This document shows positions 7,201 through 24,734 of a stretch of DNA of 39,943 bases, piece after piece (position 1 is the first letter of the stretch; the number at the start of each line of letters is the position of its first letter). The notes under the pieces are model-generated. The model made no database searches and was not told the origin of the DNA. It was given only the letters and a program-made list of their open reading frames with translations. A program made the position numbers and the translations under genes. Origin of the DNA: Candidatus Bipolaricaulota bacterium (lineage in GTDB: Bacteria; Bipolaricaulota; Bipolaricaulia; UBA7950; UBA9294); the NCBI GenBank assembly GCA_022711155.1, contig JAKLFO010000002.1:1-39943 (forward strand), given 5' to 3'.

Positions 7201-10107
7201 TTGGACCTCTTGAGCGATCTGAACCCGCGGCAGCTCGAGGCCGTTACGCACGCAGACGGCCCTCTCCTCATCGTCGCCGGCGTGGGTACCGGGAAGACCA
7301 CGGTGATCACGCGTCGCGTCGCGTGGCTCATCGCAGAGAAGCGGGTTCGCCCGGCGGAGATCCTCGCCCTCACGTTCACGGACAAGGCGGCGGCCGAGAT
7401 GGAGGAGCGCGTCGACCGTCTCGTGCCGTACGGCTACGTCGAAGCGAACATCGGGACGTTCCACTCGTTCTGCGATCGCCTGTTGCGCGAGAACGCCGTG
7501 CTCCTCGGCTTGGCCCCCGACTACCGCATTCTGACCGAGGCGGAGCAGGCGATCTTCCTCAAGGAGCACCTGTTCGACCTCCCGCTGCGCCGCTTTCGCC
7601 CCCTGGGAAACCCTCTTCACAGCCTGAACGCCATCCTCGCCCTGTTCTCCCGCGCCAAGGACGAGGACGTCACGCCCGGCGACTACGCCGCTTACGTCGG
7701 GGCGCGCGCGCACCAGGCTGCGGCCGCCGGAGCTGAGGCGGAGTTCGCCGACGAGACGGAACGCCAAGCCGAGCTGGCCGAGACGTACGCCGCGTACCAG
7801 GCGCTGCTCGCGCGGCACGGCTTCGTCGACTTCGGCGACCTCATCACGCTCTCGTTGCGCCTCCTCCGCGAGCAGCCGGGCGTCCTCGCCCGCGTCCAGC
7901 GCCGATACCGCGCGATTCTCGTCGACGAGTTTCAGGACACGAACTACGCCCAGTTCGAGCTGGTACGCCTCCTGGCTGCGAACAGGAACATCACGGCGTG
8001 CGGTGACGACGACCAGTCGATCTACAGGTTCCGCGGCGCGGCTATCTCCAACATCCTCGGGTTCCAGGACGCGTATCCCGACGCTGACCTCGTCGTGCTG
8101 GAGGAGAACTACCGCTCGACCCAGGAGATCCTCGACGCGGCGTATCGGCTCATCCAGAACAACAACCCGGACCGACTCGAGGTGCGAAGCTCGATCTCGA
8201 AGAGGCTGCGCGCCGCCTCGGGCGCGGGGCGCCCGCCCCGTCAGATCCACTTCGCGACCCAGGACGAAGAGGCGGACTTCGTCGCGGCGGAGATCCGCGA
8301 GCGCCACGACCGCGAGTCGCGCCGCTACTCGGACTTCGCGATCCTCGTGCGTTCCAACGCGGCAGCGACGAACTTCCTGCGCGCACTCAACATGTCCCAC
8401 GTCCCTTGGCGCTTCTCCGGGAGCCGCGGGCTCTACGACCAGGAGGTAGTCCGCGCGGCGATCGCCTTCCTGCGCGTGCTCGCCGACCCGCGCGACGACA
8501 TGTCGCTCCACTACCTCGCCAGCTCGCCCCTGTACAACCTCGACCCCGAGGTACTCGCCCGCGCCGCGGCCCACGCTCGGGGGCAGCACGTCCCTCTCCT
8601 CGACCTCCTGCGCTCGACGCGCGGCGGGCCGTCGCCGTTCCCCATCGGAGCGGACGACGACGCCACGGTGTCCCGTCTCGTCGGCGACCTATCCGCGATG
8701 ATCGCCGCGTCGACGCGCGAGCCGACCGGCGAGGTGCTGTACCAGTACCTGTCGACGCAGACGGGGACCATCGAGCGTCTCTCGAACTCGAGCGAGCCGG
8801 CCGACGCGCTCCGCGTCCAGCACCTGGCTCGTCTGTTCTCGGTCGTCGAGCGCTTCAGCGCCGTCGCCCGCTACGACCGCGTCGCCTGGTTCGTCGACTA
8901 CATGGACGCGCTGATCGAGGCGGGCGACAACCCGCCCGTCGGCGACGCCGCGCTCGAGGCCGACGCCGTCCCCGTCATGACCATCCATCAGGCGAAGGGG
9001 CTCGAGTTCCCTGTGGTCTTTCTCGTCGACCTCGTCGCCGGACGCTTCCCGTCGGCCGACCGTCACGATCCGTTGCCGCTTCCGGACGAGCTGCTCAAGG
9101 AGAAGTCGGCCGGCGGAGACTTCCACCGCCAGGAGGAGCGACGGCTCTTCTACGTCGCGATGACCCGGGCGCGCGAAGACGTCTACTTCACGAGCTCCCA
9201 AGACGTGGGCGGGAAGCGCGCGCGCAAGCCGAGCCTGTTCGTGTCGGAAGCGCTCGACCTCGACGCCAGCGAGTTGCGCCTTGCGGCAAGCGAGCCGCTC
9301 GCGCCGGTGAAGCGCCGCGAGCGGGCCACCGCGCCCGAGCCGACGCCCCCTCCTCGCGCCGACGATGGCCAGTTGTCTCTCAGCTTTCGCCAGGTCGACG
9401 ACTACCTCACGTGCCCGCTCCGCTACCGATACGCGCACGTTCTCCGCATCCCCGTGCGCCTGCACCACGCTCTCGTCTACGGGAACGCCGTCCACCAGGC
9501 GATTCGTCTCTACAACCTGAACGCGAGCTCCGGGCGCGCGACGCCGCTTGAGAGCCTCCACGAGGTCTTCCGCAGCCACTGGCGTTCCGAGGGCTTCCTC
9601 ACGCGCCAGCACGAGGAGCTTCGGCTGGCGGAGGGCCTCGAGGCTCTGGCCGCATTCCACGCCCACGAGGAGGCAGAGGCGATCACGCCCGACTACGTCG
9701 AGCGCCGCTTCTCGCTCGTCGACGGCGACCTGCGGCTCGTCGGCGCGTTCGACCGCATCGACCTGCTCGCGTCCGGCGGACGCCTGATCGACTACAAGAC
9801 GTCGTCGCCGCTGTCGCCCGAGGAGGCCGACGCGCGGACGAAGGACAGCCGACAGCTCGCGATCTACTCCCTCGCCTTCGCCCGCCTGTTCGGCCACCTG
9901 CCCGCTTCGGTGGAGCTTCGTTTCCTCTCCCCCACCCTCGTCGTCGGACACGCGACTCCCACGGATCGCACGGTCGACCGAGCGCAGACGGAGATCGATG
10001 AAGTGGCCCACGGGATCCGCTCGGCCGAGTTCCGCGCCGAGCCGACGTACCAGGCGTGCCGGTTCTGCCCGTACGCCGGCCTCTGCCCCTCCCGCCGCGC
10101 CGACTAG
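7201..10107 (+). CDS. UvrD/PcrA-type SF1 helicase fused to a C-terminal PD-(D/E)XK nuclease with a Cas4/AddB-type 4-Cys cluster
   Basis: TTG start at 7201 is preceded by AAGGAG. The N-terminus LNPRQLEAV..AGVGTGKTT carries helicase motif I, with DEFQDT and VMTIHQAKGLEF also present. The C-terminus has C-x(n), FDRID, IDYKTS (D-x-K), QLAIYSL and CRFCPYAGLC (CxxCx5C). Confidence 0.85.
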   Translation: MDLLSDLNPRQLEAVTHADGPLLIVAGVGTGKTTVITRRVAWLIAEKRVRPAEILALTFTDKAAAEMEERVDRLVPYGYVEANIGTFHSFCDRLLRENAVLLGLAPDYRILTEAEQAIFLKEHLFDLPLRRFRPLGNPLHSLNAILALFSRAKDEDVTPGDYAAYVGARAHQAAAAGAEAEFADETERQAELAETYAAYQALLARHGFVDFGDLITLSLRLLREQPGVLARVQRRYRAILVDEFQDTNYAQFELVRLLAANRNITACGDDDQSIYRFRGAAISNILGFQDAYPDADLVVLEENYRSTQEILDAAYRLIQNNNPDRLEVRSSISKRLRAASGAGRPPRQIHFATQDEEADFVAAEIRERHDRESRRYSDFAILVRSNAAATNFLRALNMSHVPWRFSGSRGLYDQEVVRAAIAFLRVLADPRDDMSLHYLASSPLYNLDPEVLARAAAHARGQHVPLLDLLRSTRGGPSPFPIGADDDATVSRLVGDLSAMIAASTREPTGEVLYQYLSTQTGTIERLSNSSEPADALRVQHLARLFSVVERFSAVARYDRVAWFVDYMDALIEAGDNPPVGDAALEADAVPVMTIHQAKGLEFPVVFLVDLVAGRFPSADRHDPLPLPDELLKEKSAGGDFHRQEERRLFYVAMTRAREDVYFTSSQDVGGKRARKPSLFVSEALDLDASELRLAASEPLAPVKRRERATAPEPTPPPRADDGQLSLSFRQVDDYLTCPLRYRYAHVLRIPVRLHHALVYGNAVHQAIRLYNLNASSGRATPLESLHEVFRSHWRSEGFLTRQHEELRLAEGLEALAAFHAHEEAEAITPDYVERRFSLVDGDLRLVGAFDRIDLLASGGRLIDYKTSSPLSPEEADARTKDSRQLAIYSLAFARLFGHLPASVELRFLSPTLVVGHATPTDRTVDRAQTEIDEVAHGIRSAEFRAEPTYQACRFCPYAGLCPSRRAD

Positions 10108-10445
10108 ACGGACGCGCCGGCGAGCGGCACGATGTGGTCGGCCCACAGGGAGTCGATGTCGTAGAAGCTGCGCGCCTCCCGCTCGAAGACATGGATCACG
10201 ACGTCGCCGTAGTCGAGGATGATCCAGCGCCGCTCGTTCAGCCCCTCCGTGTGGGCGGGGCGCTCGGGCAGCGCCTCACGCAAGGCGGTGACGAGCGCTT
10301 TGGCGTGGACGGGATTGTCGGCCTCCACAATGAGGAAGTAGCTCGTCGGGATCGACACGTCACGTAGGTCGATCGCCACGATTCCCTCGCCCTTCTTGTC
10401 CTCCAAGACGTGGGCCGCACGATGCAGCAACGACACCTCGCTCAT
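10104..10445 (-). CDS. rsfS: Ribosome silencing factor RsfS (iojap family)
   Basis: Motifs GIVAIDLRDVSIPTSYFLIV.., WIILDYGDVVIHVF and R.FYDIDSLW are present. I prefer ATG 10445 (GGAG 8 nt upstream, ATGA overlap with the upstream stop) over the GTG at 10454 in the track. Confidence 0.9.
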   Translation of the reverse strand: MSEVSLLHRAAHVLEDKKGEGIVAIDLRDVSIPTSYFLIVEADNPVHAKALVTALREALPERPAHTEGLNERRWIILDYGDVVIHVFEREARSFYDIDSLWADHIVPLAGASV

Positions 10446-11587
10446 CCGTTCCACTCCATTCCCGCGCCGACCACGAGCACAAGATCGGTTCCGACAGGCA
10501 CTTTCGCTCGCAGCGCCTCATAGTGCGTTCCGAATTCCGCCTGTGTGACGACCTTCGCCGCGCCGGGCAACGTATCGCGAAGGATCCACGCCTTCGCCTC
10601 GTCCGTCAAACGCACGATCGTCGTCAGAGCGTACGTGAAAACGTCGGCGTTGCCGACGGCCATGATCTGGAACCCCCGCGCTTCCAGGTACTGGGCCGCC
10701 TTCGTCGCAACCAGTCGGGCGCCGCTCCCGTTGAACACGGCCACCGAGATCGCCTCGGGAGTCAGGAGTTCCTTCGCTCGAATCGCCTTCGCGACGAGCT
10801 GCCGCGTCTCCACGGCGAGGGCGACGCGCCTCCCAACCCCGTCGCGCACGATGACGCTCGTCGGGACTTCCTCCACCTTGAGCGTGTCGCGGCACGCCGT
10901 GAGCCGTCGCCAAAGGCTCACGAGCTCGCTCCGCGGGAGACTCGACCCGACGCGTCGGAAGGCCCGCGCGGAGGTCTCCTCGCCCGCAGCCTCGGCCAAG
11001 AGCGCGCGCAGTCCGCGCTCGCTTCGCTCGGCCGCGGACTCCTTCTCTGATGCCCCGGCAACGTACGCGAGGAATGTGGCTCCGCCTAGCTCCTGCTTGC
11101 CGCGCCCGACGACCAGCGGCTCTTCGACGCCCGCCGCGCGGTACGTGACAACGCCGGGAATCTCGACGGGGATCGGGCCGAACGCATCACAGAACGCCTC
11201 CGCATCGCTCCAGCGCAGCGTCGCGTACCCGGAGACGCGGACCCCGAGGATACTCTCGACGGCGTCGCAGCACGCCGCCCAACCTCGAGACGCGCCGAGG
11301 TCTCCCAGCTCCACGAGCCGGCCGTCGGAGCCCTTGACGGAGAGGTCCGTCGGAATGAGCAAGAAGCAGGCCCCCGTCGCAGCGAGGCTGACGACGCCGA
11401 GGGCGCGGGCTCCGACTCCATCGGGCGTCTCGCCCTGCACGGCCCACAACAGGACTCCGTCTCCGTCCAGCGGCCAGCTGGTTCGGTCCGTGCTCGCAGC
11501 GAAGGCCCATACGAGAAGGCCGGCGACACAGAGAATGGCTCCGGCTGCTCCGTAGAGAACAGTCTTCCGAACCGGGTTTCCCCTCAT
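10442..11587 (-). CDS. Membrane-anchored LCP-like protein with C-terminal LytR_C domain
   Basis: The internal ATG at 11587 (MRGNPVRKTVLYGAAGAILCVAGLLVW, a TM helix) follows GGGGAGGGGG. The C-terminal ISVAVFNGSGARLVATKAAQYLEARGF..VGNAD is LytR_C-like. The central domain assignment is weaker. Confidence 0.7.
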   Translation of the reverse strand: MRGNPVRKTVLYGAAGAILCVAGLLVWAFAASTDRTSWPLDGDGVLLWAVQGETPDGVGARALGVVSLAATGACFLLIPTDLSVKGSDGRLVELGDLGASRGWAACCDAVESILGVRVSGYATLRWSDAEAFCDAFGPIPVEIPGVVTYRAAGVEEPLVVGRGKQELGGATFLAYVAGASEKESAAERSERGLRALLAEAAGEETSARAFRRVGSSLPRSELVSLWRRLTACRDTLKVEEVPTSVIVRDGVGRRVALAVETRQLVAKAIRAKELLTPEAISVAVFNGSGARLVATKAAQYLEARGFQIMAVGNADVFTYALTTIVRLTDEAKAWILRDTLPGAAKVVTQAEFGTHYEALRAKVPVGTDLVLVVGAGMEWNG

Positions 11588-11606
11588 CCCCCTCCCCCTC
11601 GTGTCG

Positions 11607-11635
11607 ACCCTATCACAAGAAGCTCCGCGTGTCAA
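11607..11635 (-). promoter_or_regulatory. Putative promoter for the LCP-rsfS operon: TTGACA, 17 nt, TAGGGT
   Basis: Reverse complement of 11630-11635 is TTGACA and of 11607-11612 is TAGGGT, with a 17-nt spacer. It lies about 20 nt upstream of the ATG. Confidence 0.45.
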
Positions 11636-11651
11636 CTGAAGAGCTCTTCCC

Positions 11652-13046
11652 ATGGCCTTTCCGCGCCCGATGGAAAGCCCGCTCGCGTCCGGTATGCTTG
11701 GGACCATGCGCGGGAACAGCGTTGCACGAGTTGTCCCACCCGGCGCGGGCCGCGGCCGACCTCGCGTTTCGTTCCTCACGCTCGGTTGCCGGGTCAACCA
11801 GTACGAGACGGACGCCATGCGAGCCCAGCTCGGCGCGACGTGCGACATCGTCGACGAGGGCGCCGACGTCTACATCGTCAACGGCTGTTCGGTGACGAGC
11901 CTGGCGGAGAAGAAGGCGCGTCAGGCGGTGCGACGGCTTCGCGCATCCGCCCCGAGCGCGCTCTTTCTCCTCACCGGCTGTCTTGCCGATGCGGTGCTGC
12001 AGGGCATGAGCTCGTTCGAAGCGATGGACCTGATCGCCGCGAGCTCGTGGAAGGTCCGCATCGCGGAGGTCGTCGCCGCGGCGTGGGCCGGACGACGCGG
12101 CGCCCTCGGTCCGCGGGCCGCGGCGCCGCTCGACCTGGAGTCGTCGGCCGGCCCCGCCGACCGTGTCCGCACCCATCTCAAGGTGCAAGACGGCTGCTCG
12201 GGCGCCTGCTCGTATTGCCGCGCTGTTCAGCTTCGCGGCGCCTCGCGCAGCAAGACCCTTACGGCGGCGGCGGCCGAAGCGGACCGCCTGGTCGGCCTCG
12301 GGTACCCCGAACTCGTCGTGACGGGCATCAACCTCGCCGAGTACGCCGCCGGCGACGCACGCCTTCCCAACCTCCTGGCCCGCCTCCTCACTGTGCCCGG
12401 CCTCGTTCGCCTGCGCCTCGCTTCGCTGAATGTGACGGGCATCACCGATGCGCTCCTCGACGTCTTCGCCGCGGATCCGCGGCTGTGCCCACACTTCCAC
12501 ATTCCCCTGCAGAGCGGCGACGACGGCGTGCTCCGCGCGATGCGCCGTCTCTACAGCGCGCGCGACTACTGCCAGGCCGTCGCACGGATACGCAGACGGC
12601 TGCCCGGCGCCACGTTCGGGTCGGACGTGATCGTGGGGTTCCCCGGCGAGGACGAGCGAGCGTTCGCCCGGACGTGCCGGGTCGTGGAGGAGGTGGGCTT
12701 CTCGAACCTCCACATCTTCCGCTTCTCGCCGCGCCGCGGCACCGAGGCCGCCGACCTCCCGGGAGTCGTGTCCGAGTCGGCGAAGCGCGAGCGCGCGCGC
12801 GAGCTGTCTCGCGTGGGGGACGAGCAGCGCAAGAGGATTCTTGACGCCCACGTAGGCAGCGCAGAAGATGTCCTCGTGGAAGGGCAGCTCGGCGGCCGCT
12901 TCCACGGCCACAGCGCGGGCTACCTCAGGGTGCAGTTCACTTCACGTCGACTACTCCCCGAAGGCGCGCTGTGCCGCGTGCGCTTCTTCCGCGCCGCGCA
13001 GGACGGACTCGAAGGAGTACATGACGATCAACACGGTGCAGACTGA
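11652..13046 (+). CDS. mtaB: Radical-SAM methylthiotransferase, MtaB-like (MiaB/RimO family)
   Basis: Motifs FLTLGCRVNQYE, ADVYIVNGCSVTSLAEKKARQ and the radical-SAM GCSGACSYC are present, plus a C-terminal TRAM-like domain. The start is uncertain: ATGs at 11652, 11670, 11694 and 11706 all lack a clear SD. Confidence 0.8.
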   Translation: MAFPRPMESPLASGMLGTMRGNSVARVVPPGAGRGRPRVSFLTLGCRVNQYETDAMRAQLGATCDIVDEGADVYIVNGCSVTSLAEKKARQAVRRLRASAPSALFLLTGCLADAVLQGMSSFEAMDLIAASSWKVRIAEVVAAAWAGRRGALGPRAAAPLDLESSAGPADRVRTHLKVQDGCSGACSYCRAVQLRGASRSKTLTAAAAEADRLVGLGYPELVVTGINLAEYAAGDARLPNLLARLLTVPGLVRLRLASLNVTGITDALLDVFAADPRLCPHFHIPLQSGDDGVLRAMRRLYSARDYCQAVARIRRRLPGATFGSDVIVGFPGEDERAFARTCRVVEEVGFSNLHIFRFSPRRGTEAADLPGVVSESAKRERARELSRVGDEQRKRILDAHVGSAEDVLVEGQLGGRFHGHSAGYLRVQFTSRRLLPEGALCRVRFFRAAQDGLEGVHDDQHGAD

Positions 13047-14024: not shown

Positions 14025-15065
14025 ATGTTCTCGATTCGTGAGGCTGTGCCCGACGACAACGACGCGCTGTTGCGTCTCGAGGCCGCGAGCCCTCAAGGCA
14101 CGGGAATCTCCATCGTCATCGACCGCGCCGACTACTTCTATCGGTCGCGCATGCACGATCGCGCCCGCGTCCTCCTCGCCACGGAGAACGACCGCGTCGT
14201 CGGGATCATGGCGTACGCCGTGAAGGACGTCCTGATCGATGGCGTGCCGGAGCGCGCCGCGTACTTCTACGACCTCCGCGGCGACGCGGAGTATCGGCGA
14301 AGCATGAAACGCGGCCTGCTACGGCTCTGGAACGCCGCGCACGACGAGATGAAGGCCGCTGGAGCCGTTTTCGTCTACGGGCACGTGAAGTGCGACAACT
14401 TCGATTCGATGAACATCGTCACGCGCCTCGGAGCGCGTCCCGCGGCGTCGTCCAACATCCTGACCCTGCCGTCGCTGCGGGGGCGCGCGGCCCCACTGGA
14501 TCCGCACCTCGACTCGCTCGACAAGGAAGTGGCGCGGATCGATCGGGCGGTCGGCGAGCGCTCACTGAAGCCCGTCCACTTCGCCGCGGCCTACACGCGC
14601 GGCGCCGAGCTGGGATACCTGAAGGGGATCTACCGTCTTGAGGAGGGAGCATCCTCCGCGCAAGTCAGCGCGTGGGATCTCTCGGGGATCTATCGCGGGC
14701 GCGTCACGCACATGCCTCTCTCCCTGCGAACCCTCGGGACCTTCTTGAACCCGATTGCGCGCGTCCTGCCGACGCCGCGGATCCCCGTGGTGGGACAGAG
14801 GATCGCCTACCTGCAGCTCTTCGACCCCGTGTGCACGGGCCCCAGTGGCCACGCGCTCCTGAAGTCGCTCATCAGCCGGATTCGGCGGCTTGCGTTCGCG
14901 GACGGGATCGACATCCTCACTGTGTTCGCCTACGCCGACGACCCCCTCGTTCGCCTGCCGCGGTACTTCCCGCAGACCGTCCTCCACTACCACACGATGA
15001 TCTTCCCGATCCGCCGCGACGATCTTCCGCAGGGGCCGTTCTACCTCGACATCCGCGACGTCTAG
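14025..15065 (+). CDS. GNAT-family N-acetyltransferase with a ~190-aa C-terminal region of unknown function
   Basis: ATG at 14025 follows GGGAGGGGAGG. The N-terminal ~150 aa has GNAT-like topology (..VVGIMAYAVKD.., RRSMKRGLLRLW..). The C-terminal half carries no motif I recognise. Confidence 0.65.
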   Translation: MFSIREAVPDDNDALLRLEAASPQGTGISIVIDRADYFYRSRMHDRARVLLATENDRVVGIMAYAVKDVLIDGVPERAAYFYDLRGDAEYRRSMKRGLLRLWNAAHDEMKAAGAVFVYGHVKCDNFDSMNIVTRLGARPAASSNILTLPSLRGRAAPLDPHLDSLDKEVARIDRAVGERSLKPVHFAAAYTRGAELGYLKGIYRLEEGASSAQVSAWDLSGIYRGRVTHMPLSLRTLGTFLNPIARVLPTPRIPVVGQRIAYLQLFDPVCTGPSGHALLKSLISRIRRLAFADGIDILTVFAYADDPLVRLPRYFPQTVLHYHTMIFPIRRDDLPQGPFYLDIRDV

Positions 15066-15751
15066 ACCGCGAGGCGGTACCCGAACCCTCGCACGGTCAG
15101 GACGATCTCGGGGTTCGTCACGTCGGCCTCGATCTTCTTGCGCAGGAGATAGACGTACTTCTGAGCGTCCTGTCCGGTCGCGTACGAGGTGTGCCCAGCG
15201 GCGAGCAAGGGCTCGGTCCACAACGCGTCGACGATCTCCTGGCTCGAAAACACCCGTCCTGGAGCCGAAGCGAGGAGCGACAGGAGCGCGTACTCCTTGG
15301 GAGAAAGGGTGACGCGGCGTTCGGCGATCCAGACCTCCTTGCGCTCGTCATCGATGACGAGGCGAGGCCGATGGAGTTCCGGGAAGATGCGCCGCAACAC
15401 GGAGCGGACTCTCGCCCGCACTTCCTCGACATGAAAGGGCTCTTGAATGACGTCGTCCGCTCCGAGATCGAGCGCGCGAACGCGATCACCCAGCCGAGCC
15501 AGGGACGTGAGGATGACGAGGCCCGGCGTCCCGTCCCGTTCGCCCAGCCACTCGAGCAGGTCCCATCCGCCCCGATGGGGGCCGCGGACCGCGAGCTCGA
15601 GCAGCACGAGGTCCGGCTGCAGCGCGGCGATCCGCTCGCGCGAGTCTTCGTCCCACGGGAGGCTCTCGACTCGGTGGCCGTCCTCGGTCAGCCCGCGGAC
15701 GAGCGCATCGTGCGGGTTCGAGTGGCATAGGACGATCTGGGCCGTCTCCAT
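15062..15751 (-). CDS. OmpR/PhoB-family response regulator with an atypical (Asp-less) receiver domain
   Basis: The C-terminal winged helix is canonical (LSPKEYALLSLL.., TVRGFGYRL). In the receiver, the acidic pocket reads CHS instead of DDD, the phospho-acceptor reads LLELA instead of LLDL, and the conserved Lys reads IQEPF instead of KPF. AAGGAG lies 9 nt upstream and overlaps the ftsZ stop. Confidence 0.85.
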   Translation of the reverse strand: METAQIVLCHSNPHDALVRGLTEDGHRVESLPWDEDSRERIAALQPDLVLLELAVRGPHRGGWDLLEWLGERDGTPGLVILTSLARLGDRVRALDLGADDVIQEPFHVEEVRARVRSVLRRIFPELHRPRLVIDDERKEVWIAERRVTLSPKEYALLSLLASAPGRVFSSQEIVDALWTEPLLAAGHTSYATGQDAQKYVYLLRKKIEADVTNPEIVLTVRGFGYRLAV

Positions 15752-15764
15752 AGGGGTCGACTCC

Positions 15765-17114
15765 TTACGGTGCGTCCTCGTTGTCCCGCTCGCGGCGGAG
15801 GAAGGTCGGCACGTCCAGGTTCGCGTCGCGAGAGACGCGCTCGCGGCGCACGTGCCGCTTCTCCTCGCGGCCCACGGCCTCCGCCGCCTGGAAACTCGCG
15901 GCGATGATCGTGATCTCGATCTCGCGCCCGGCGTCGGGGCGGACGACGGCCCCGAAGATCAGGTCGCACTCCGTCGCGGTCGCGCGCCGCACGTGATCCG
16001 CAGCCTGGGTCACCTCGCCCAGGGTCAGGTCCTCTCCGCCCGTCACGTTGAGGATCATCTTCCTCGCGCCGCGGATCGAGTCCCCCTCCAAGAGCGGATT
16101 CGTGCTGGCGGCCTTCGCCGCGGCCAGGGCTCGCCCCGGTCCGGAGGCGTGTCCCATGCCCATCATCGCTTCGCCGGCGTTGGCGAGCAGGCTTCGAATG
16201 TCGGCGAAGTCGAGGTTGATCATGCCTCGCACCGTGATGAGATCCGAGATCCCACGGACGCCCTGGTGCAGGATGCCGTCCGCCAGCTCAAACGCCTGGG
16301 TCATCGGCATTCCGCGCGCCGCCGTCTGGAGCAGGCGATCGTTCGACACGACAATCAGCACATCGGCCGCGGCGCGCAACGAAACGAACCCGCGCTCCGC
16401 GTTCGCCGTGCGCGTGGCCCCCTCGAAGGCGAAGGGGCGCGTCACGACGCCGATCGTGAGAGCGCCGGCTTCGCGCGCGATCTGCGCGATGACCGGAGTT
16501 GCGCCCGTCCCTGTCCCGCCGCCAAGCCCCGCCGTCACAAAGACGAGGTCCGTGTCATGCAGAAGCTTGGAGATCTCCCAGCGCGACTCTTCCGCCGCCC
16601 GCGCGCCCTTCTCGGGGCTGCCGCCGGTGCCGCGTCCCGCCGTGATGTCGACCCCAATCTGAAGCTCCTCGCGCGCCGCCGCCGCCTGGAGAACCTGCTT
16701 GTCCGTGTCGACTGCGACCAATCGGACTCCCGACAGGCGCTCTTCGCGCATCCGCGTGACGGCGTTGACGCCGCCCGCGCCCACGCCGAGCACGACGATG
16801 CGCGCGTGCCCTCCACGTTCCACGGCCTCGCCTCCCCTGGCTTGCTGGACCAGCGGCCGATCTCCCATGACGACTTCCCGATCGCCCAGGACCCGCTCGA
16901 CGACTTCCTGGATCTTGTCAAGCTTGCGAAGGCAGTACTCCTTACGGAAGTCGCTGTCAACCGCGATGTAGAACTGCACCCCGTCGTCGCTCACCGCGCC
17001 GGCATCGATCGGCAAGCAGGCGCGAAGCACGTGGTCCGCGATCCCGTCACGAATCGCCCGCCACGCTCCATGCAGAGGACTCTCGCGCGCCCCGTCCGAT
17101 CGCGTCTCGGCCAT
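15765..17114 (-). CDS. ftsZ: Cell division protein FtsZ with a ~100-aa N-terminal extension
   Basis: Motifs GVGAGGVNAV, the tubulin signature GLGGGTGTGATP, and the C-terminal peptide DVPTFLRR are present. ATG at 17114 has GGGAG 6 nt upstream and a promoter just beyond. The extension shows GC3-rich codon usage like the rest of the gene. Confidence 0.9.
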   Translation of the reverse strand: MAETRSDGARESPLHGAWRAIRDGIADHVLRACLPIDAGAVSDDGVQFYIAVDSDFRKEYCLRKLDKIQEVVERVLGDREVVMGDRPLVQQARGGEAVERGGHARIVVLGVGAGGVNAVTRMREERLSGVRLVAVDTDKQVLQAAAAREELQIGVDITAGRGTGGSPEKGARAAEESRWEISKLLHDTDLVFVTAGLGGGTGTGATPVIAQIAREAGALTIGVVTRPFAFEGATRTANAERGFVSLRAAADVLIVVSNDRLLQTAARGMPMTQAFELADGILHQGVRGISDLITVRGMINLDFADIRSLLANAGEAMMGMGHASGPGRALAAAKAASTNPLLEGDSIRGARKMILNVTGGEDLTLGEVTQAADHVRRATATECDLIFGAVVRPDAGREIEITIIAASFQAAEAVGREEKRHVRRERVSRDANLDVPTFLRRERDNEDAP

Positions 17115-17134
17115 CACGCACTCCCGATCGAGCC

Positions 17135-17163
17135 ATTCTGTACGCGAACCGGAGCCAAGTCAA
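17135..17163 (-). promoter_or_regulatory. Putative promoter for ftsZ: TTGACT, 17 nt, CAGAAT
   Basis: Reverse complement of 17158-17163 is TTGACT and of 17135-17140 is CAGAAT, with a 17-nt spacer. It lies 20 nt upstream of the ATG at 17114. Confidence 0.5.
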
Positions 17164-17308
17164 CGCGCCCGCGCCGGCCGGCGGCCGCGCGACGACCGGA
17201 AGAGAAGCACGCTCCGCCGGCAAGGGAAACGGGGGGCGTGAAGGAGCCGCAGCGCGGCCTAGTCCCTCCCCGCCGGGGAGAGAAGACCGCCCGTGGGGCC
17301 AAAGGCGA

Positions 17309-17330
17309 GAGCGGGAGACGACTCCCGCTC
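17309..17330 (-). terminator. Second hairpin downstream of rpmF (possible back-up terminator, weak U-tract)
   Basis: 9-bp stem gagcgggag / ctcccgctc with loop acga. On the minus strand it is followed by tcgcctttgg. Confidence 0.35.
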
Positions 17331-17363
17331 GGGCAAAAGAAAAGCGGGAGAGAACTCCCGCTT
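17331..17363 (-). terminator. Rho-independent terminator after rpmF
   Basis: The minus strand reads aagcgggag-ttct-ctcccgctt followed by ttcttttg. It begins 16 nt after the rpmF stop. Confidence 0.7.
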
Positions 17364-17379
17364 CAGGTCTCAGTCGACC

Positions 17380-17571
17380 CTATTCCGACGCTGGCTTCTG
17401 CGAGACGATCTCCATCCCGTTGTAGAAACCGCAGCTAGAGCAGACGCGGTGTGGAAGCTTCGGCTCGTGGCAATGCGGGCACTCCGTGGACGGCACCGGG
17501 TCCATCTTGCGCCAGTGATTGCGCCGCATGCGCACCTTGGATCGTGAAGTTCGATATTTCGGTACAGCCAT
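17380..17571 (-). CDS. rpmF: 50S ribosomal protein L32 (zinc-ribbon form)
   Basis: [17 protein letters not shown].. with CPHC...CSSC. AGGAGG lies upstream. Confidence 0.95.
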
Positions 17572-17619
17572 TTCTCCTCCTGGGTGGAGACACCGCTCGA
17601 CTCGAGCGTGGAGCGAAGT

Positions 17620-18078
17620 CTACCCTTGCCGCTGGGGAGGCGCAAGCTCGAGGAGGAGCGTCACCGGTCCGTCGTTCACGAGATCGACCAGCATGTGCGC
17701 GCCGAAACGGCCTTCCCGCACGGTCGCGCCCTCCGCGCGCAACGCCGCGACGAAGGCGTCGAACAGCGGGCGCGCAACCTGCGGCGGCGCGGCGTCGGCG
17801 TAGCTCGGGCGCCGCCCCTTCCGCGCGTCACCGTACAGGGTGAACTGCGACACAGCCAGAATCTCGAGCCCAAGGTCGCGCAGCGACAGGTTCATCTTGC
17901 CCTCGGCGTCCGAGAAGACCCGAAGCTCGACCACCTTGCGCGCTGCGGCCGCCATGTCGAGCGGTCCGTCGTCCCCACCGATTCCCACGAGGAGCACGAG
18001 CCCGCGCTCGATGGACCCGACTTCTTCTCCGTCGACGCGCACCGAGGCGCGCAGGACGCGCTGGAGGACGATCCGCAC
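17620..18078 (-). CDS. dtd: D-aminoacyl-tRNA deacylase
   Basis: MRIVLQRV.. and SQFTLYGD are present, and the C-terminus carries NDGPVT. GTG start lies 1 nt after the upstream stop. Confidence 0.9.
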   Translation of the reverse strand: MRIVLQRVLRASVRVDGEEVGSIERGLVLLVGIGGDDGPLDMAAAARKVVELRVFSDAEGKMNLSLRDLGLEILAVSQFTLYGDARKGRRPSYADAAPPQVARPLFDAFVAALRAEGATVREGRFGAHMLVDLVNDGPVTLLLELAPPQRQG

Positions 18079-18079
18079 G

Positions 18080-18601
18080 CTACCCCGCGTCCTCGAGACG
18101 TTCGGCGTACTCGATCAGCTTCCGCATGCTGTCCTCATTGAGCGATGCCGCGCGGGAGAGGAGGAGCATCTCGAGGCGCTCGTGGGACATCTGCGCCTGA
18201 AGGTTGCGATGGAAGGCCTGTTCGACGAGCCGCGGCGCGCGGTGATGCGCGCGCTCGTCGACGAAGTTGACCCGCCACTGCGGCAGCTGGTTCAGAAGGG
18301 CGATCGCGCGCTCGATGAGGTGTTTGATGTGCGGCTCGCGCGTCTCGAACACGCCGTTGATGTGATTCGCCAGCCGCTGGTTGTCGGTGAAGAACACGAC
18401 GGACTGCGGCTTGTAGGCAATCACGCGCCGACACGCCTCGAGCAGCGCGCGGTACTCGGCGACCTCCGTCGTCGAGCGGCCGATCAGCTCGGAGATCTCC
18501 TCCACGACGTTCCCACGCGCATCCGTGATGGCCACGCCGATCCCGGCCTCGCCGGGCTCGGAGCGCGCACCTCCATCGACGTACACGAAGAGCTTGTCCA
18601 T
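18080..18601 (-). CDS. RNase H-like (type 1 / archaeal-type RNase HI fold) protein with a C-terminal helical extension
   Basis: VYVDGGAR (Asp), EVAEYRALLEA (Glu) and FFTDNQ (Asp) are present. The expected C-terminal N..AD.LA reads HHRAPRLV. The ATG lies 4 nt after the tRNA 3' end. Confidence 0.65.
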   Translation of the reverse strand: MDKLFVYVDGGARSEPGEAGIGVAITDARGNVVEEISELIGRSTTEVAEYRALLEACRRVIAYKPQSVVFFTDNQRLANHINGVFETREPHIKHLIERAIALLNQLPQWRVNFVDERAHHRAPRLVEQAFHRNLQAQMSHERLEMLLLSRAASLNEDSMRKLIEYAERLEDAG

Positions 18602-18605
18602 GCTG

Positions 18606-18677
18606 TGGGTCCACCAGGCTTCGAACCTGGGACCAACCGGTTATGAGCCGGCTGCTCTGCCTCTGAGCTATGGACCC
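18606..18677 (-). tRNA. tRNA with CAU anticodon (elongator tRNA-Met, or tRNA-Ile2 if lysidinylated); CCA not encoded
   Basis: Folded by hand on the minus strand: acceptor GGGTCCA/TGGACCC, D stem GCTC/GAGC, anticodon stem GCCGG/CCGGT with loop CTCATAA, variable TGGTC, T arm CCAGG-TTCGAAG-CCTGG, discriminator A. Total 72 nt. It lacks the three G-C pairs expected in an initiator anticodon stem. Confidence 0.9.
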
Positions 18678-18720: not shown

Positions 18721-19508
18721 GCAGGCGAACTCCCGCCCTCTCGTCGCTCCGGCACCCGGCCGACCTCGAAGCCGCAGGCGCGCAACGGGCCGAGGAGGTC
18801 TTCGGCGTCGGCCAGCCACTGGCCCCACTTGCGCCCCATGTGTTCGGTCCACGAGTAGGTGTGGCGCGAGTACGTCTCGCGTCGCCCGCCGTCGAGAGGG
18901 ATCACGTAGTCACGGTAGTAGTCCTGCGCCAGATACCCCTCGTCCATGGCGGCCATCGCGCGCTCGACGTCGGCCTCGCTCGGCTCGCGGTAGCGGTCCT
19001 CATGGAGGGTGAACGAGAGGGGATAGCGCGGCCGCGGACGCGGGCGCGACGCCGGGTAACCCATAGCGAGCTGCACGAACGGGAAGACGCGCGGCGGGAG
19101 TCCGTAGTCGGCGCGGATCTCCTCCGCCGCGAACGCGGCCCCTCCTAGGTAACAGCTTCCCAGACCGAGGATCTCCCCCGCGATCACAAGGTTCTCCGCC
19201 ATGTACGCCGCATCCTGGATCGCGAAGAGGAGGACGGCTGCATCGCTCGTGATGCGCGTCCAGCCGCGCCTCTCGAGGACGCGCTCGAGTCGGTGCACGT
19301 CGGCGCAGACGGTGAACAAGAGAGGGGCCCCGAAGGGGTTCCGCTCCCTGTCCCTGCGCAGGAGGAGGCTCCCGAGTTGCGCGGCGAACGGGGCCTGTTG
19401 TCCGGCGCGCACGACCGCCTCGACGGTCTCGCGCGTCGGCTCTTGCTCGGTGTACTCGCGCACCGAGGCGCGCTCCATCAAGACTCCGACCATCCCTTCA
19501 CGATCCAT
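18717..19508 (-). CDS. Nitroreductase-family protein with a ~100-aa C-terminal extension
   Basis: RASVREYT is an N-terminal nitroreductase-type motif and there is a GSCYLGG region. ATG at 19508 follows GGGAGGG. Confidence 0.65.
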   Translation of the reverse strand: MDREGMVGVLMERASVREYTEQEPTRETVEAVVRAGQQAPFAAQLGSLLLRRDRERNPFGAPLLFTVCADVHRLERVLERRGWTRITSDAAVLLFAIQDAAYMAENLVIAGEILGLGSCYLGGAAFAAEEIRADYGLPPRVFPFVQLAMGYPASRPRPRPRYPLSFTLHEDRYREPSEADVERAMAAMDEGYLAQDYYRDYVIPLDGGRRETYSRHTYSWTEHMGRKWGQWLADAEDLLGPLRACGFEVGRVPERREGGSSPA

Positions 19509-19605
19509 GCCATCCCTCCCGCCGCCGCAGCGGATGGACGAGCATAGCCTTTCGCGCGCCGGCCCGTCAGGGTATGCTCGCCCGCCGGGCGGAGGTGGAG
19601 CTGGA

Positions 19606-21000
19606 ATGGAGAGGATCCTCGAGGACCTGGTCGGACGCTCGTCCGACTGGCTCGAAGCGCGCTACCAGGAGCGCCGGTCCCTGACGCTGTCCGTGCGCAA
19701 CGGCCACTTCGAGCAATGTTCGAGCGTCCGGACGCGTGGAGTCGGTCTGCGCGCACTCGCCGCGAGCGCGTTCGGATTCGCCAGCACGACGGACTTGTCG
19801 AAGCGGGGCCTCGCAGATGCGGCCCGGGCCGCCGGAAAGCTGGCGGCGGCTGCCGCCGCGGAGACGCACCGCCCGCCCGTCCGGCTCGCTCCGGTGCCGC
19901 CGGCTCGCGGCGTCTTCCGCGTGCAGACCGCTGACCCGGTCGACGCGCACTCGCTCGAGGAGAAGATCGAACTCGTCCTGCACCTCGACGCGCGGGCCCG
20001 CCGCGCGTCCGCGCGCATCACGGCGTCGTCGGTAACCTACTCGGAGACGTGCGAGGACCGGATCCTCGCGACAACCGAGGGAACGCTCGTGCGCGTGATC
20101 GACGCCAAGCCGAGCCTCCGCATCCTCGCGGTCGCCGCCTCTCACGGCGAGCAGGCGATGGGCGTGCAGACGGCCGGCGTGAGCGGCGGCTGGAGCGAAC
20201 TCGCGAACGCTCGCAGTCCCGAGGCTCTCGTCGACGAGGCCGTGCGCGTCGCCGTCGATCAGCTATCCGCGCCGCACGCGCCGGGAGGCGTCGCCACCGT
20301 CGTCTTGGATCCGGAACTCGTCGGCACGCTGTGCCACGAGGCGATCGGACACACCGTCGAGGCGGACATCGTCTTGGGAGGGGCCGTCACGGCAGGGAGA
20401 CTCGGCACCCGCGTCGCGTCGGACCTGGTGACCATGGTGGATTCGGGCCTTCCCCCCAGCGGACCCTACGTTGTCGGCTGGCTGCCGATCGACGACGAGG
20501 GCACACCGGCGACGCGCACGGCCCTGATCGAGCGCGGCATCCTTCGTTCGTACCTGCACAACCGGGAGACCGCGTCCCACTTCGGAGCGGCTCCGACGGG
20601 GAACGCGCGAGCGTTCCTGTACAGCGACGAGCCGATCATCCGCATGACGAACACGTACATCGAGCGCGGGGAGACCCCGGTCGACGAGATGCTCGCGGGC
20701 ATCGAGTCAGGCTACTACCTGCGCGGGTTCGCGATGAGCGGGCAGGCTGACTCCAGCGCGGAGTTCATGTTCGGCGTGCGCGAGGCCACGCGCATCGAGC
20801 GCGGTCGCAGCGCAGGGCTCGTGAAGGGCATCACGATCTCCGGCAACGCCTTCGACGTGCTGCAGTCCGTCGACGCGGTGGGCAACGACTTCGCCTGGGA
20901 GAACGGCGCGGGATTCTGCGGCAAGGGCCAGCCGGCCAAGGTGGACGCCGGCGGCCCCCACCTCCGCTGCCGCATCACGTTAGGAGGGCTCCAGCCATGA
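19606..21000 (+). CDS. tldD: Metalloprotease TldD (peptidase U62)
   Basis: ATG at 19606 follows GGAGGTGGAG. The HEAIGHTVEAD zinc motif is present. The track ORF 19201..21000 N-terminal part is antisense to the nitroreductase gene. Confidence 0.9.
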   Translation: MERILEDLVGRSSDWLEARYQERRSLTLSVRNGHFEQCSSVRTRGVGLRALAASAFGFASTTDLSKRGLADAARAAGKLAAAAAAETHRPPVRLAPVPPARGVFRVQTADPVDAHSLEEKIELVLHLDARARRASARITASSVTYSETCEDRILATTEGTLVRVIDAKPSLRILAVAASHGEQAMGVQTAGVSGGWSELANARSPEALVDEAVRVAVDQLSAPHAPGGVATVVLDPELVGTLCHEAIGHTVEADIVLGGAVTAGRLGTRVASDLVTMVDSGLPPSGPYVVGWLPIDDEGTPATRTALIERGILRSYLHNRETASHFGAAPTGNARAFLYSDEPIIRMTNTYIERGETPVDEMLAGIESGYYLRGFAMSGQADSSAEFMFGVREATRIERGRSAGLVKGITISGNAFDVLQSVDAVGNDFAWENGAGFCGKGQPAKVDAGGPHLRCRITLGGLQP

Positions 21001-22331
21001 GCGACCACGCTTGGCTCGAGATGTGTCTCGAGGGCTGCGCCGCAGCGCGTGCTGCGGGGGCGACCGAGGCCGAGGTGTTCGCGCAGCACGCGGTGGAGAC
21101 GTCCGTCACGATCGAGAAGGGCGACCTTCAGCTCGCCCGCTCGAGCACCGAGTCGACGTTCGGAGTGCGCGCACTCGTCGGCGATCAGCTCGGGTTCGCG
21201 AGCACGAACGCGGCGAGCGACTTGGCCGCCGCGTGCCGGGACGCCGTGATCCTCGCCCGGTCCGCTCCGGGCGATCCGCACAACCGCCTCCCGGAGCCTC
21301 GCCGCGCCGAGCCGGTCGCCGGCCTCGACGACCCGAACTGGGAGGAGTTCACGGCCGCGGATGCCGTTCGGTGCGCGGTCGAGATGCTGCGTGTCTCCGC
21401 CGCGTTCGACAAGAGAGTCATCGTCGGAGACGCCGGCGTCTCTTCCGTGCGCCTGACGCGCGCCATCGCCAACACGCGCGGCGCCGCGGCCGCGGAAACC
21501 GTCAGTCTCTTCAGCCACCACATCCTCGTCACGGCGCGAGAGGACGAGCGGGTATCGAGCATGGACTTCCAGTACGGCGCCTCTCGACGCGCGAGAGAGA
21601 TCGACGTCGCGCCGACGGTGATCCTCGCCTGTCGCAACGCGGTGGACTCCCTCGGCACGGGCAAGGGCCGCACGTTCCGGGGGGTCGTCATCCTCTCACC
21701 GAGCGCCGCGCTCGAGATTCTCGTGTCCCCCCTCCTCTTTCAGGTGAACGCCCGGAACGTCCTGCGCGGCCTCTCGCGCTGGGACGGATCGCTCGGAGCG
21801 GAGATCGCCGCACCGACCGTGTCCGTCGCCGACGACGGCACTGCGCCCGGCGGCATCGCGAGCTCGTCGTTCGACCGCGAGGGCACCCCGCGGGCGCCGC
21901 TCACGCTCATCGAGCGAGGTCGCCTCGCCTCCTTCCTTCACAACGCGTACTCGAGTTCGGCGTCGACCGCCCCCAACACGGGGCACGCGGCGGGGCCGGC
22001 GAGTTCTCCCCCGATGATCGGCCCGACGAACCTCACGTTCGCCCCCGGCGCGCCATCGCTCGAGGAGCAGATCGCGGACACCGAGCTGGGCCTCCTCGTG
22101 GGCCGCTTCTCGGGGAACGTGGACCCGATCTCCGGCGACTTCTCGGGGGTCGCCAAGGCGGCGCACCTGGTGCAGCGCGGGCGGCGCGCCGCGGTCTCGG
22201 AAACTCTCGTCGCGGGCAACGTGTTCGACGCGCTGCGAGCCGTCCTCGACACGTCGAGCGACGTGCAACGGATCTTCGGGTTTGCCCTGCCCTATGTGCG
22301 CCTCGACGGGATCTCCGTGACCGCCGGCTGA
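20997..22331 (+). CDS. pmbA: TldE/PmbA (peptidase U62 partner subunit)
   Basis: It is paired with tldD by an ATGA overlap at 20997-21000. It has a PmbA/TldD-fold C-terminus (GLLVGRFSGNVDPISGDFSG) and lacks the HExxxH motif. Confidence 0.85.
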   Translation: MSDHAWLEMCLEGCAAARAAGATEAEVFAQHAVETSVTIEKGDLQLARSSTESTFGVRALVGDQLGFASTNAASDLAAACRDAVILARSAPGDPHNRLPEPRRAEPVAGLDDPNWEEFTAADAVRCAVEMLRVSAAFDKRVIVGDAGVSSVRLTRAIANTRGAAAAETVSLFSHHILVTAREDERVSSMDFQYGASRRAREIDVAPTVILACRNAVDSLGTGKGRTFRGVVILSPSAALEILVSPLLFQVNARNVLRGLSRWDGSLGAEIAAPTVSVADDGTAPGGIASSSFDREGTPRAPLTLIERGRLASFLHNAYSSSASTAPNTGHAAGPASSPPMIGPTNLTFAPGAPSLEEQIADTELGLLVGRFSGNVDPISGDFSGVAKAAHLVQRGRRAAVSETLVAGNVFDALRAVLDTSSDVQRIFGFALPYVRLDGISVTAG

Positions 22332-22345
22332 CTTCGCGCGGAAGA

Positions 22346-23008
22346 CTAGGGCGCGATGGGCGCGGGCGGGGCCGGCGGCGTCGGCCCCACAAGCTCGACA
22401 GGCGCCGAGGCTGCCCCGTCGACCGCGGGAAGGTCGATCGGCTCAAGCCCTATCGGAGCCGACGAGTCGAGCGGCGCGAGTTCGAGCGCGCGGAACCCGC
22501 CCTCGATCCGCGCCATCCCCTCTTCCACGCGCGCTGGCAGATCGACGGCCGCGGCGCGCCGACTCCACAGCACGAGCGCCGAGTCGCCCAAGAGGAGAAC
22601 GACGGCTCTCGATGTGCGCCCTTCGGCGTCCGGCGCGAGGACGAGCACGGCGCCGTCTCGCCCACCGCCGACCGGCGACGACGAGACAGCGGCCGGCAGC
22701 GCGCAGGACGAGCACGGGTCGATCGCCTCCCACGCGGCGGCGACGGCTTCGTCGGCCGACTTCGCGACCACGCGCACCGCCCAGGCCTCGATCCCGGCCA
22801 CGGGGGGGAGGAAGACGCCGGCGGCATCGGTCGGCTGGAACGCCCATCCTGCCGGCAGCGGGAACGAGACTCCGCGTAGGTCGTCGACCGTCTCGACATC
22901 GCCCGCCCGTTCGACCTGCATCATCCGATCCGGCGGCAGGTAGACGACGCCGTAGGCGAAGAGAATGATCCCGACCCAGATGCCGACCAAGAACAGCGCG
23001 TTCTTCAT
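22346..23008 (-). CDS. Hypothetical N-terminally anchored protein (220 aa)
   Basis: MKNALFLVGIWVGIILFAYGVVYL is a TM helix. GGAGGTG lies 5 nt upstream and a TAGAAT promoter lies beyond it. No motif is recognised. The tail is Pro/Ala-rich. Confidence 0.55.
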   Translation of the reverse strand: MKNALFLVGIWVGIILFAYGVVYLPPDRMMQVERAGDVETVDDLRGVSFPLPAGWAFQPTDAAGVFLPPVAGIEAWAVRVVAKSADEAVAAAWEAIDPCSSCALPAAVSSSPVGGGRDGAVLVLAPDAEGRTSRAVVLLLGDSALVLWSRRAAAVDLPARVEEGMARIEGGFRALELAPLDSSAPIGLEPIDLPAVDGAASAPVELVGPTPPAPPAPIAP

Positions 23009-24642: not shown

Positions 24643-24651
24643 CAGAGGCGC

Positions 24652-24681
24652 ATTCTACGAGGCAGGCCGGCGCGTCTCCAA
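24652..24681 (-). promoter_or_regulatory. Putative promoter for ruvB giving a (near) leaderless mRNA: TTGGAG, 18 nt, TAGAAT, 9 nt, ATG
   Basis: Reverse complement of 24676-24681 is TTGGAG and of 24652-24657 is TAGAAT. Only 9 nt separate the -10 from the ATG at 24642, and there is no SD. Confidence 0.45.
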
Positions 24682-24734
24682 GTCGGATGCAGCGCCCTCT
24701 GGCGCGAAGTACGATCCCGCCGGAGCGTGGGCGC

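Follow-up and report, generated by a model that had tools for sequence, protein, structure and literature searches.

An FtsZ with a predicted DnaA_N-like N-terminal domain in Candidatus Bipolaricaulota

We analysed a stretch of 39,943 nucleotides from a Candidatus Bipolaricaulota bacterium (assembly GCA_022711155.1, contig JAKLFO010000002.1, positions 1 to 39,943; hereafter the window), with a focus on its gene for the division tubulin FtsZ and on the residues that precede the GTPase core of the encoded protein. This FtsZ is made of four parts, a disordered leader, a DnaA_N-like (DANL) domain of about 73 residues, an acidic linker and a canonical FtsZ with its C-terminal peptide (Table 1). Profile comparisons and structure prediction identify the domain as a new FtsZ-specific family of the DANL superfamily, distantly related to DnaA domain I, and it was found in about 200 FtsZ sequences of the same phylum. 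The initial annotation of the window, made by eye from the sequence, had claimed a real N-terminal extension of about 100 amino acids and, as a speculation, a likeness of this extension to DnaA domain I. The extension was borne out by its conservation, by purifying selection, by the non-conservation of the internal Met83 and by RNA contigs, and the likeness to DnaA domain I gained support from hhalign, from the clustering of Pfam matches, from a link through the database protein P0135 and from AlphaFold2 and Foldseek.

The open reading frame of ftsZ (15765-17117, minus strand) begins with a GTG at 17117 and an ATG at 17114 directly next to it. Starting at the ATG gives a protein of 449 amino acids, and a database protein (P0001) was identical to it and had the same ATG as its start. 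Pfam recovered Tubulin (PF00091) over residues 106-265, with 150 bits for a cut-off of 33, and FtsZ_C (PF12327) over residues 315-409, with 86.4 bits for a cut-off of 27. The NCBIfam model TIGR00065 (ftsZ) matched residues 97-428, numbered from the GTG, with 355.7 bits for a cut-off of 295.2. These match limits place the start of the FtsZ core at about residue 104-105, with about 103 residues ahead of it, in agreement with the initial annotation, which had put the core at about residue 105 instead of the canonical position of about 10. The tubulin signature GGGTGTG and the T7 synergy loop NLDFAD were both present, and their residues were invariant in 54 relatives. In the C-terminal peptide, which in other FtsZs is the docking site for membrane tethers and regulators, D434, P436, F438, R440 and R441 were likewise invariant in the 54 sequences. 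With every defining feature that can be tested at the level of the sequence being present, the gene appears to be a bona fide FtsZ.

The start signals read by the initial annotation were recovered as well. The GGGAG that it had reported six nucleotides upstream of the ATG lies at 17125-17121, and its promoter-like element just upstream, TTGACT-17 nt-CAGAAT, was the single such site in positions 15000-18200, where shuffled sequences gave 0.1 +/- 0.4 sites. The G+C content at third codon positions (GC3) was 0.78 for the extension against 0.88 for the core, in line with the initial annotation, which had called the extension GC3-rich like the core. Scans of the spacer between rpmF and ftsZ with Rfam and for tRNAs gave no match.

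Table 1. Coordinates of ftsZ, of the parts of its product and of associated features in the window.
Feature	Position	Strand	Details and basis
ftsZ coding sequence	15765..17114	(-)	449 aa plus stop, ATG at 17114; Pfam Tubulin + FtsZ_C; TIGR00065 above cut-off
Variable, predicted-disordered leader	17082..17114	(-)	residues 1-11; pLDDT <50 for residues 2-11
Predicted DnaA_N-like (DANL) domain	16863..17081	(-)	residues 12-84; AlphaFold2, hhalign, Pfam clustering, Foldseek
Acidic flexible linker	16806..16862	(-)	residues 85-103; pLDDT <50 for 87-103
Canonical FtsZ GTPase core and C-terminal subdomain	15867..16805	(-)	residues 104-416; GGGTGTG signature, NLDFAD T7 loop
Conserved C-terminal peptide LDVPTFLRR	15792..15818	(-)	residues 433-441; helix predicted 437-444
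Shine-Dalgarno-like GGGAG	17121..17125	(-)	6 nt before ATG; read from sequence
Promoter-like site TTGACT-17 nt-CAGAAT	17135..17163	(-)	sequence scan
Terminator-like hairpin after rpmF, between rpmF and ftsZ	17341..17364	(-)	sequence scan
OmpR-type response regulator	15062..15751	(-)	13 nt downstream of ftsZ, same strand; Pfam

A scan of one genome per species recovered four relatives, all metagenome-assembled genomes labelled Bipolaricaulota or "uncultured Thermotogae", and these four carry the extension since their tblastn matches started at query residues 2-16. Using the full-length FtsZ as query, we obtained 120 protein clusters of 445-494 amino acids with a query coverage of 93-100%, which corresponded, wherever the source was named, to Candidatus Bipolaricaulota, Bipolaricaulia or Bipolaricaulis. 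The motif W-x8-D-R-I-L-R-A-C-L-P ... V-D-S-E-F-K-K-E-Y-C-x-R-K was present in all of them except P0075, which is 5'-truncated and begins at LRACLP. Starting from P0131, the most divergent member, a further search recovered a second clade; its roughly 85 clusters have the same architecture and bear the names Bipolaricaulaceae, Bipolaricaulis and Acetothermia. The extension was present in every full-length close relative examined, about 200 non-identical FtsZ sequences of Bipolaricaulota/Acetothermia, and the architecture joining a DANL domain to FtsZ is probably ancestral to the phylum.

Alignment of 198 non-identical N-termini, a check proposed in the initial annotation, showed that the extension is kept at the protein level: W18, D27, L30, P35 and K64 were invariant, and R31, C33, L34, F56, K57, Y60 and R63 were conserved in more than 96% of the sequences. 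At the codon level, the ratio of non-synonymous to synonymous differences per site (pN/pS) between the window and four loci was 0.29-0.54 for residues 15-80 and 0.18-0.32 for the core; it was about 0.3-1.4 for the variable leader, indicating weak constraint there, and synonymous sites were near saturation in these comparisons (pS 0.56-0.83). The extension is under purifying selection.

These results bear on whether the extension could be an annotation artefact, with the true start at Met83 or later and the 100 codons upstream forming an open but untranslated leader. Such a reading could draw on the fact that the domain of the window, taken alone, had no Pfam match, and on a weak Shine-Dalgarno-like GGGAAG that we found at -11 to -6 of Met83, a small correction to the initial annotation, which had seen no Shine-Dalgarno sequence ahead of its internal MGDRP start. 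Met83 is the sole internal alternative start; of the 198 relatives, 191 have I, V or L at this position, and three of the 198 sequences, the window's own included, have Met. The GGGAAG is therefore moot, and an internal start at Met83 was rejected. RNA-derived contigs, from a metatranscriptome and an RNA-seq run, matched 16813-17059 and 16882-17083 exactly and none covered the spacer at 17140-17353, a pattern that, at very low depth, fits a transcript starting from the predicted promoter. The RNA evidence is thin: the contigs are of low depth, and of the four runs compared X25 and X26 are RNA-Seq libraries filed under a metagenomic source, with an uncertain library type, and X31 has no library on record. 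The conservation at the protein level across about 200 sequences, in which W, D, L, P and K are invariant, the purifying selection, the loss of Met83 in relatives and the RNA contigs exclude an untranslated leader for practical purposes, and the confident fold prediction and detectable homology to a known domain described below also speak against it; we give this reading hardly any credence. Translation of the whole protein starts at the ATG at 17114. Tryptic digestion of the extension would be expected to give, among others, AIRDGIADHVLR and ACLPIDAGAVSDDGVQFYIAVDSDFR.

The initial annotation had also suggested a check by AlphaFold and Foldseek, which returned a confident fold with DnaA domain I among the top matches. 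For residues 12-84, AlphaFold2, given an alignment of 54 sequences (A2), predicted a compact domain, with values of the predicted local distance difference test (pLDDT) of 77-87 per residue block (about 85) and disordered flanks on both sides. The predicted elements, a1 (13-24), a2 (28-33), b1 (41-43), b2 (47-50), a3 (55-76) and b3 (80-83), follow the a-a-b-b-a-b topology of the KH-like fold of DnaA domain I. In the full-length model the same domain reappeared, followed by a low-confidence linker (87-103) and a confidently predicted FtsZ core, and the C-terminal peptide was modelled as a short helix. In the Foldseek comparison with the PDB, the DnaA domain I structures 4tps_D/B were matched with a TMt of 0.59-0.60, a root mean square deviation of 3.5 A over 80 columns and a probability of 0.66-0.72, 2jmp with a TMt of 0.52, and 2e0g at rank 4. 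The best superpositions over the full length of the domain were those with DnaA domain I structures, and KH-type folds (NusA, RbfA and S3) and other small alpha/beta folds were interleaved among the matches.

Homology was also recovered at the level of sequence profiles. With hhalign, A2 matched a six-sequence DnaA_N alignment over 65 columns with a probability of 95.6% (E 1.1e-8); the probability was 95.9% with the 198-sequence alignment and 89.7% with the second clade alone, and the reversed and the 80 column-shuffled controls did not exceed 2.5%. The DnaA_N alignment contained segments of Bacillus subtilis, Escherichia coli, Thermotoga maritima and the 10xo chain and the two repeats of P0135; the B. 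subtilis sequence matches 4TPS and 8BTG with 100% identity, and the E. coli, T. maritima and 10xo segments were taken from PDB search alignments. In a permissive Pfam scan of the 54 members, DnaX_C was matched by 14 (best 4.4e-5), DnaA_N-like_STI by 12 (8.2e-4) and DnaA_N by 10 (4.5e-3), and each unrelated family by at most two. The domain of the divergent clade matched DciA (2.6e-4) and DnaX_C (6e-4).

When the 1.84 billion representative proteins were searched with a hidden Markov model of A2, only 15 sequences were recovered: FtsZ proteins or fragments, one tandem-repeat artefact and P0135 (E 8.5e-4). The last has two bona fide DnaA_N domains (Pfam 9.5e-16), and thus provides a reciprocal link to DnaA_N. 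P0135 is a protein of 343 amino acids in which the two DnaA_N domains stand in tandem, without the AAA+ or DnaA-box-binding part and with a long unrelated N-terminal region; it represents another non-initiator use of the DnaA_N fold. No stand-alone copy of the FtsZ domain was found by this profile among these proteins. Six candidates (P0125-P0128, P0130 and P0132) were either FtsZ proteins cut short by the end of a contig or chimeric reads, and P0129 was a 14-fold tandem-repeat reading frame matching only the string "DRVLRAC". The N-terminus alone recovered no protein from a word-indexed search; this reflects the limited sensitivity of the index and not absence, as the full-length query found hundreds of proteins. 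A profile search of PDB sequences gave nothing significant, the best match (3hrp, 0.087) being a chance "YCLRKLD" string.

In the profile alignment, W18 corresponded to W6 of E. coli DnaA (W8 in B. subtilis), F56 to F46 (F49 in B. subtilis) and Y60 to W50 (W53 in B. subtilis), and C33, S54 and G77 corresponded to E. coli E21, N44 and the Gly ending helix 3. Domain I of E. coli DnaA depends critically on W6 in helix 1 for its dimerisation and contacts DnaB and DiaA through a patch composed of E21, W25, N44, F46 and W50 in helices 2 and 3; in other species, SirA and HobA are bound at the corresponding patch (PMC5448010; PMC5720831). The most conserved residues of the FtsZ domain fell exactly in these two regions, the helix 1 Trp and the helix 2/3 patch, W18 being present in 198 of 198 sequences and F56 in 192, with Tyr in the remainder. 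The helix 2/3 patch has, in addition, charged residues of its own that are invariant or almost so (D27, R31, K57, R63 and K64). A redox or metal pair formed by Cys33 and Cys61 was considered and rejected, since 63 of the 198 sequences have Val in place of C61 and the loss of one Cys does not go with the loss of the other.

Several observations weigh against a DnaA-like docking domain, both at the level of homology and at that of function. The Foldseek E-values were non-significant (0.2-0.8 for the DnaA matches, best 0.21) and no match in the PDB reached E <= 1e-3, such that the match of the predicted model to DnaA domain I, on its own, is without statistical significance; these scores are depressed by about 30 disordered residues in the query. 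All Pfam matches remained below gathering thresholds. For the members shown individually, the best of them reached 12-22 bits for cut-offs of 24-27, and DnaA_N (PF11638) at most about 14 bits for a threshold of 24.6. The domain of the window alone matched none of DnaA_N, DnaX_C, STI and DciA, and its 105-residue N-terminus returned only noise from Pfam and NCBIfam (DUF6866_C at 0.09). Because of these sub-threshold matches, and of their absence for the window's domain, the domain is assigned to a new family within the superfamily and not to DnaA_N, DnaX_C or DciA proper. At the level of residues, the second Trp of DnaA domain I (W25 in E. coli, W27 in B. subtilis) falls in a three-residue deletion of the FtsZ domain, and the helix 2 partner residues (E. 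coli E21/W25; B. subtilis T26/W27) are not retained, the position of E21 being occupied by Cys33 and that of W25/W27 lying in the gap. As the counterpart of W25/W27 is deleted, the partner surface of the FtsZ domain is not the one of DnaA. The conserved aromatic residues could also be structural and not part of an interface. Finally, the hosts are uncultured, and the functional role proposed below is read from the sequence and the model.

The linker that follows the domain has about 20 residues, is predicted to be disordered and has a median net charge of -2. It starts with a conserved motif, E85-P-P87-L88-x-E90, with E85 in 180, P87 in 195, L88 in 164 and E90 in 166 of the 198 sequences; the copy of the window, D-R-P-L-V-Q, is among the more deviant. 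A wider version of this motif, (V/I)-I-G-E-P-P-L-(V/I)-E-Q, spans residues 83-92 (16839-16868, minus strand), and the window, with VMGDRPLVQQ, also deviates from it. The domain itself is near neutral, with a median pI of 6.5 and a net charge of 0 (range -4 to +3), and is thus unlikely to be a dedicated binder of nucleic acids; a dedicated DNA-binding role was judged unlikely on the basis of this charge.

DANL domains are protein-protein docking modules (PMC5720831; PMC5448010). By analogy, we consider it rather probable that the domain of FtsZ is a built-in interaction hub, which would self-associate through the face bearing W18 and/or recruit a partner through the helix 2/3 patch. Attachment of FtsZ to the membrane by its N-terminus or by its C-terminus is reported to give opposite membrane curvatures (PMC9111741, citing Osawa 2008/2009), which suggests that the two termini leave opposite faces of the filament. 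The C-terminal peptide, LDVPTFLRR, has been kept intact and is invariant, so that this FtsZ is presumably tethered to the membrane in the conventional way. From the opposite termini and a C-terminal peptide held at the membrane, we infer that the N-terminal domain would face the cytoplasm from the inner side of the Z ring, at the end of a flexible tether of about 20 residues. The helix 1 face with W18 may then mediate self-association and so link adjacent filaments to each other, in the manner of a Zap-type bundler that is part of FtsZ itself, and the helix 2/3 patch (D27, R31, C33-L34-P35, S54, F56, K57, Y60, R63 and K64) may bind a specific partner.

The partner could be DnaB, DnaA or another component of the replisome or of its loader, in which case the assembly or placement of the Z ring would be tied to the state of replication. 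Every characterised relative of the fold acts in replication (DnaA_N, DnaX_C, DciA and STICHEL), these families were the only ones matched, and both DnaA domain I and the DANL domain of DciA contact DnaB (PMC5448010; PMC5720831). Moreover, F56 aligns with E. coli F46, a residue needed for DnaB loading, and the invariant charged residues at the surface suggest a specific, co-evolving partner. We nevertheless consider such a coupling of replication and division rather unlikely. Since the fold serves for docking in a generic way, its ancestry does not dictate the partner. W25/W27 has also lost its counterpart to the deletion, E21 is replaced by Cys, and no replication gene adjoins ftsZ at any locus examined.

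Two further possibilities do not involve a protein partner of this kind. The domain, or the E-P-P-L-x-E motif bound to the domain, could dock on the FtsZ core and gate polymerisation until a signal is received, which might come from the pathway of the co-transcribed response regulator. This would be consistent with the conservation of the linker motif despite its predicted disorder, with the invariant basic cluster of the helix 2/3 face (R31, K57, R63 and K64) beside an acidic linker, and with the conserved pairing of ftsZ and the response regulator gene. However, the full-length AlphaFold2 model, judged without the predicted aligned error, has a low-confidence linker and no reported docking, and we know of no comparable case in any FtsZ, so that an intramolecular regulator seems quite unlikely. 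A direct contact with nucleic acids, in which the KH-like fold would bind single-stranded DNA or RNA and either tether filaments to the nucleoid or sense it, has a very poor chance in our view. It would make the domain a built-in nucleoid-occlusion or positioning device, and the KH-type proteins NusA, RbfA and ribosomal S3 were indeed among the Foldseek matches; yet the domain is near neutral and its linker acidic, the sequence has no GXXG-type KH loop, and even the KH-like DnaA domain I binds single-stranded DNA only weakly, with a relevance that is in doubt (PMC5448010).

The initial annotation had described ftsZ as lying outside a dcw context, with rpmF and a response regulator gene as its neighbours; in agreement with this, dcw genes such as ftsA, ftsQ and mur were absent from the 40-kb window. 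Locally, the genes are arranged as RNase H-like, dtd, rpmF, ftsZ, response regulator, GNAT, phoH and miaB-like. We compared the window, from 18080-18601 (-) through 15062 (-), with positions 8658-12050 of locus L005, which lies on an 886-kb contig of a relative 78% identical. The order RNase H-like (RVT_3), dtd, rpmF, ftsZ, response regulator, GNAT, phoH, miaB-like, LCP, rsfS and addA-like was identical in the two, and ftsZ is therefore stably outside any dcw cluster in this lineage. The genes of the window are all housekeeping genes, among them those for a seryl-tRNA synthetase, an AddA/UvrD-type helicase-nuclease, RsfS, an LCP protein, MiaB-like, PhoH and GNAT proteins, the response regulator, L32, Dtd, an RNase H-like protein, TldD/PmbA, RuvB, subunits of pyruvate:ferredoxin oxidoreductase and glycoside hydrolases.

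The response regulator is probably co-transcribed with ftsZ. The pair was found at five of seven loci (the window, L001, L002, L003 and L005/L006, the last two counted once), with the regulator at 3992- in L001, 3011- in L002, 7383- in L003 and 11361-12050 in L005; a PAS histidine kinase takes its place in L004 and a PKD protein in L007. The regulator of the subclade containing the window is atypical in its receiver domain, having lost the acidic pair after strand 1 (..VLCHSNP..) and replaced the phospho-acceptor Asp by Glu (DLVLLELAV); those linked to ftsZ in L002 and L003 are canonical (CEDD/CEDE, LLD). The records of L002, L003 and L004 are titled "uncultured Thermotogae bacterium" and that of P0211 "Caldiserica bacterium", and all of them encode a Bipolaricaulota-type FtsZ with the domain; these taxonomic labels are probably wrong or placeholders.

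Elsewhere in the window, a tRNA-Met (CAT) at 18605-18677 (-), between the nitroreductase-like and RNase H-like genes, was the only match of Rfam and ARAGORN. Two adjacent, overlapping genes of PmbA/TldD-family metallopeptidases, at 19201-21000 (+) and 20997-22331 (+), likely form a TldD/PmbA (TldE) pair. Coding-like reading frames (GC3 0.77-0.91) with no Pfam match at 1e-5 were located at 34259-36469 (+), 22346-23008 (-), 387-890 (+) and 24642-25565 (-)/24462-25652 (+). One of these Pfam-less frames encodes a 736-amino-acid protein between ROK-family and GH57/glucodextranase-like genes, and at 24.5-25.6 kb two long frames on opposite strands have similar codon statistics, which makes the coding strand ambiguous.

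The domain of FtsZ has in common with DnaA domain I (PF11638; 2E0G, 4TPS and 2JMP) the a1-a2-b1-b2-a3-b3 KH-like topology, here predicted, the helix 1 Trp, the "x-S/N-x-F-x-x-E/D-Y/W" start of helix 3 and a flexible linker on its C-terminal side, which is domain II in DnaA. It differs from it in being fused to FtsZ and not to an AAA+ initiator with a DnaA-box binding domain, in being three residues shorter between helix 2 and strand 1, and in having its own motif D-R-I-L-R-A-C-L-P. DciA (PF05258), DnaX_C (PF20964) and DnaA_N-like_STI (PF23007), the families matched most often and best, although below threshold, are likewise small DnaA_N-like docking modules grafted onto another protein, and in DciA a conserved aromatic residue is functionally critical (PMC5720831). 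The hosts of these modules are replication factors whereas the host here is the division tubulin, and the module, which is C-terminal or constitutes the whole protein in these families, is N-terminal in FtsZ.

FtsZ is among the most studied bacterial proteins, and its known lineage-specific additions are, to our knowledge, almost all disordered linkers or short peptides. The N-terminal additions to the FtsZ of heterocyst-forming cyanobacteria, of plastids and of haloarchaea are, as far as we know, short peptides of about 50 residues or targeting sequences, for none of which a globular fold related to a known domain is reported. The addition in Bipolaricaulota, in contrast to these, is a predicted folded domain of about 73 residues belonging to a recognisable superfamily, followed by a linker. 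The conserved N-terminal peptide reported for the FtsZ of heterocyst-forming cyanobacteria, which in Anabaena affects polymerisation and division, resembles it in being a lineage-specific conserved addition at the same end (PMC6175996). The cyanobacterial division factor Ftn6/ZipN, described as having an N-terminal DnaD-like domain (PMC2736966), offers a loose precedent for the reuse of a type of replication-initiation domain in a divisome protein; as presented there, its fold is DnaD-like and not DnaA_N-like, and its host is a partner of FtsZ and not FtsZ itself.

The literature on FtsZ combined with Bipolaricaulota, Acetothermia, DnaA_N or N-terminal extension, as far as full-text searches showed, describes neither a DnaA_N-FtsZ fusion nor a Bipolaricaulota FtsZ. 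Database entries name these proteins "cell division protein FtsZ" with Tubulin and FtsZ_C only, and the domain thus deserves a family definition. A folded, phylum-wide N-terminal domain with homology to the docking module of DnaA, DciA and DnaX represents a new FtsZ architecture, and would be the first case, in the literature searched, of a DANL fold outside replication proteins. There is a small chance that this phylum-wide division tubulin, through its replication-type docking domain, wires the Z ring to DnaB, DnaA or a component of the replisome; if so, a replication-division checkpoint would be built into FtsZ itself, instead of acting through separate nucleoid-occlusion or Min-type factors. 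The coordination of replication with division, a long-standing question, and the organisation of the Z ring without the accessory proteins of model organisms become testable through one small domain, suited to heterologous expression.

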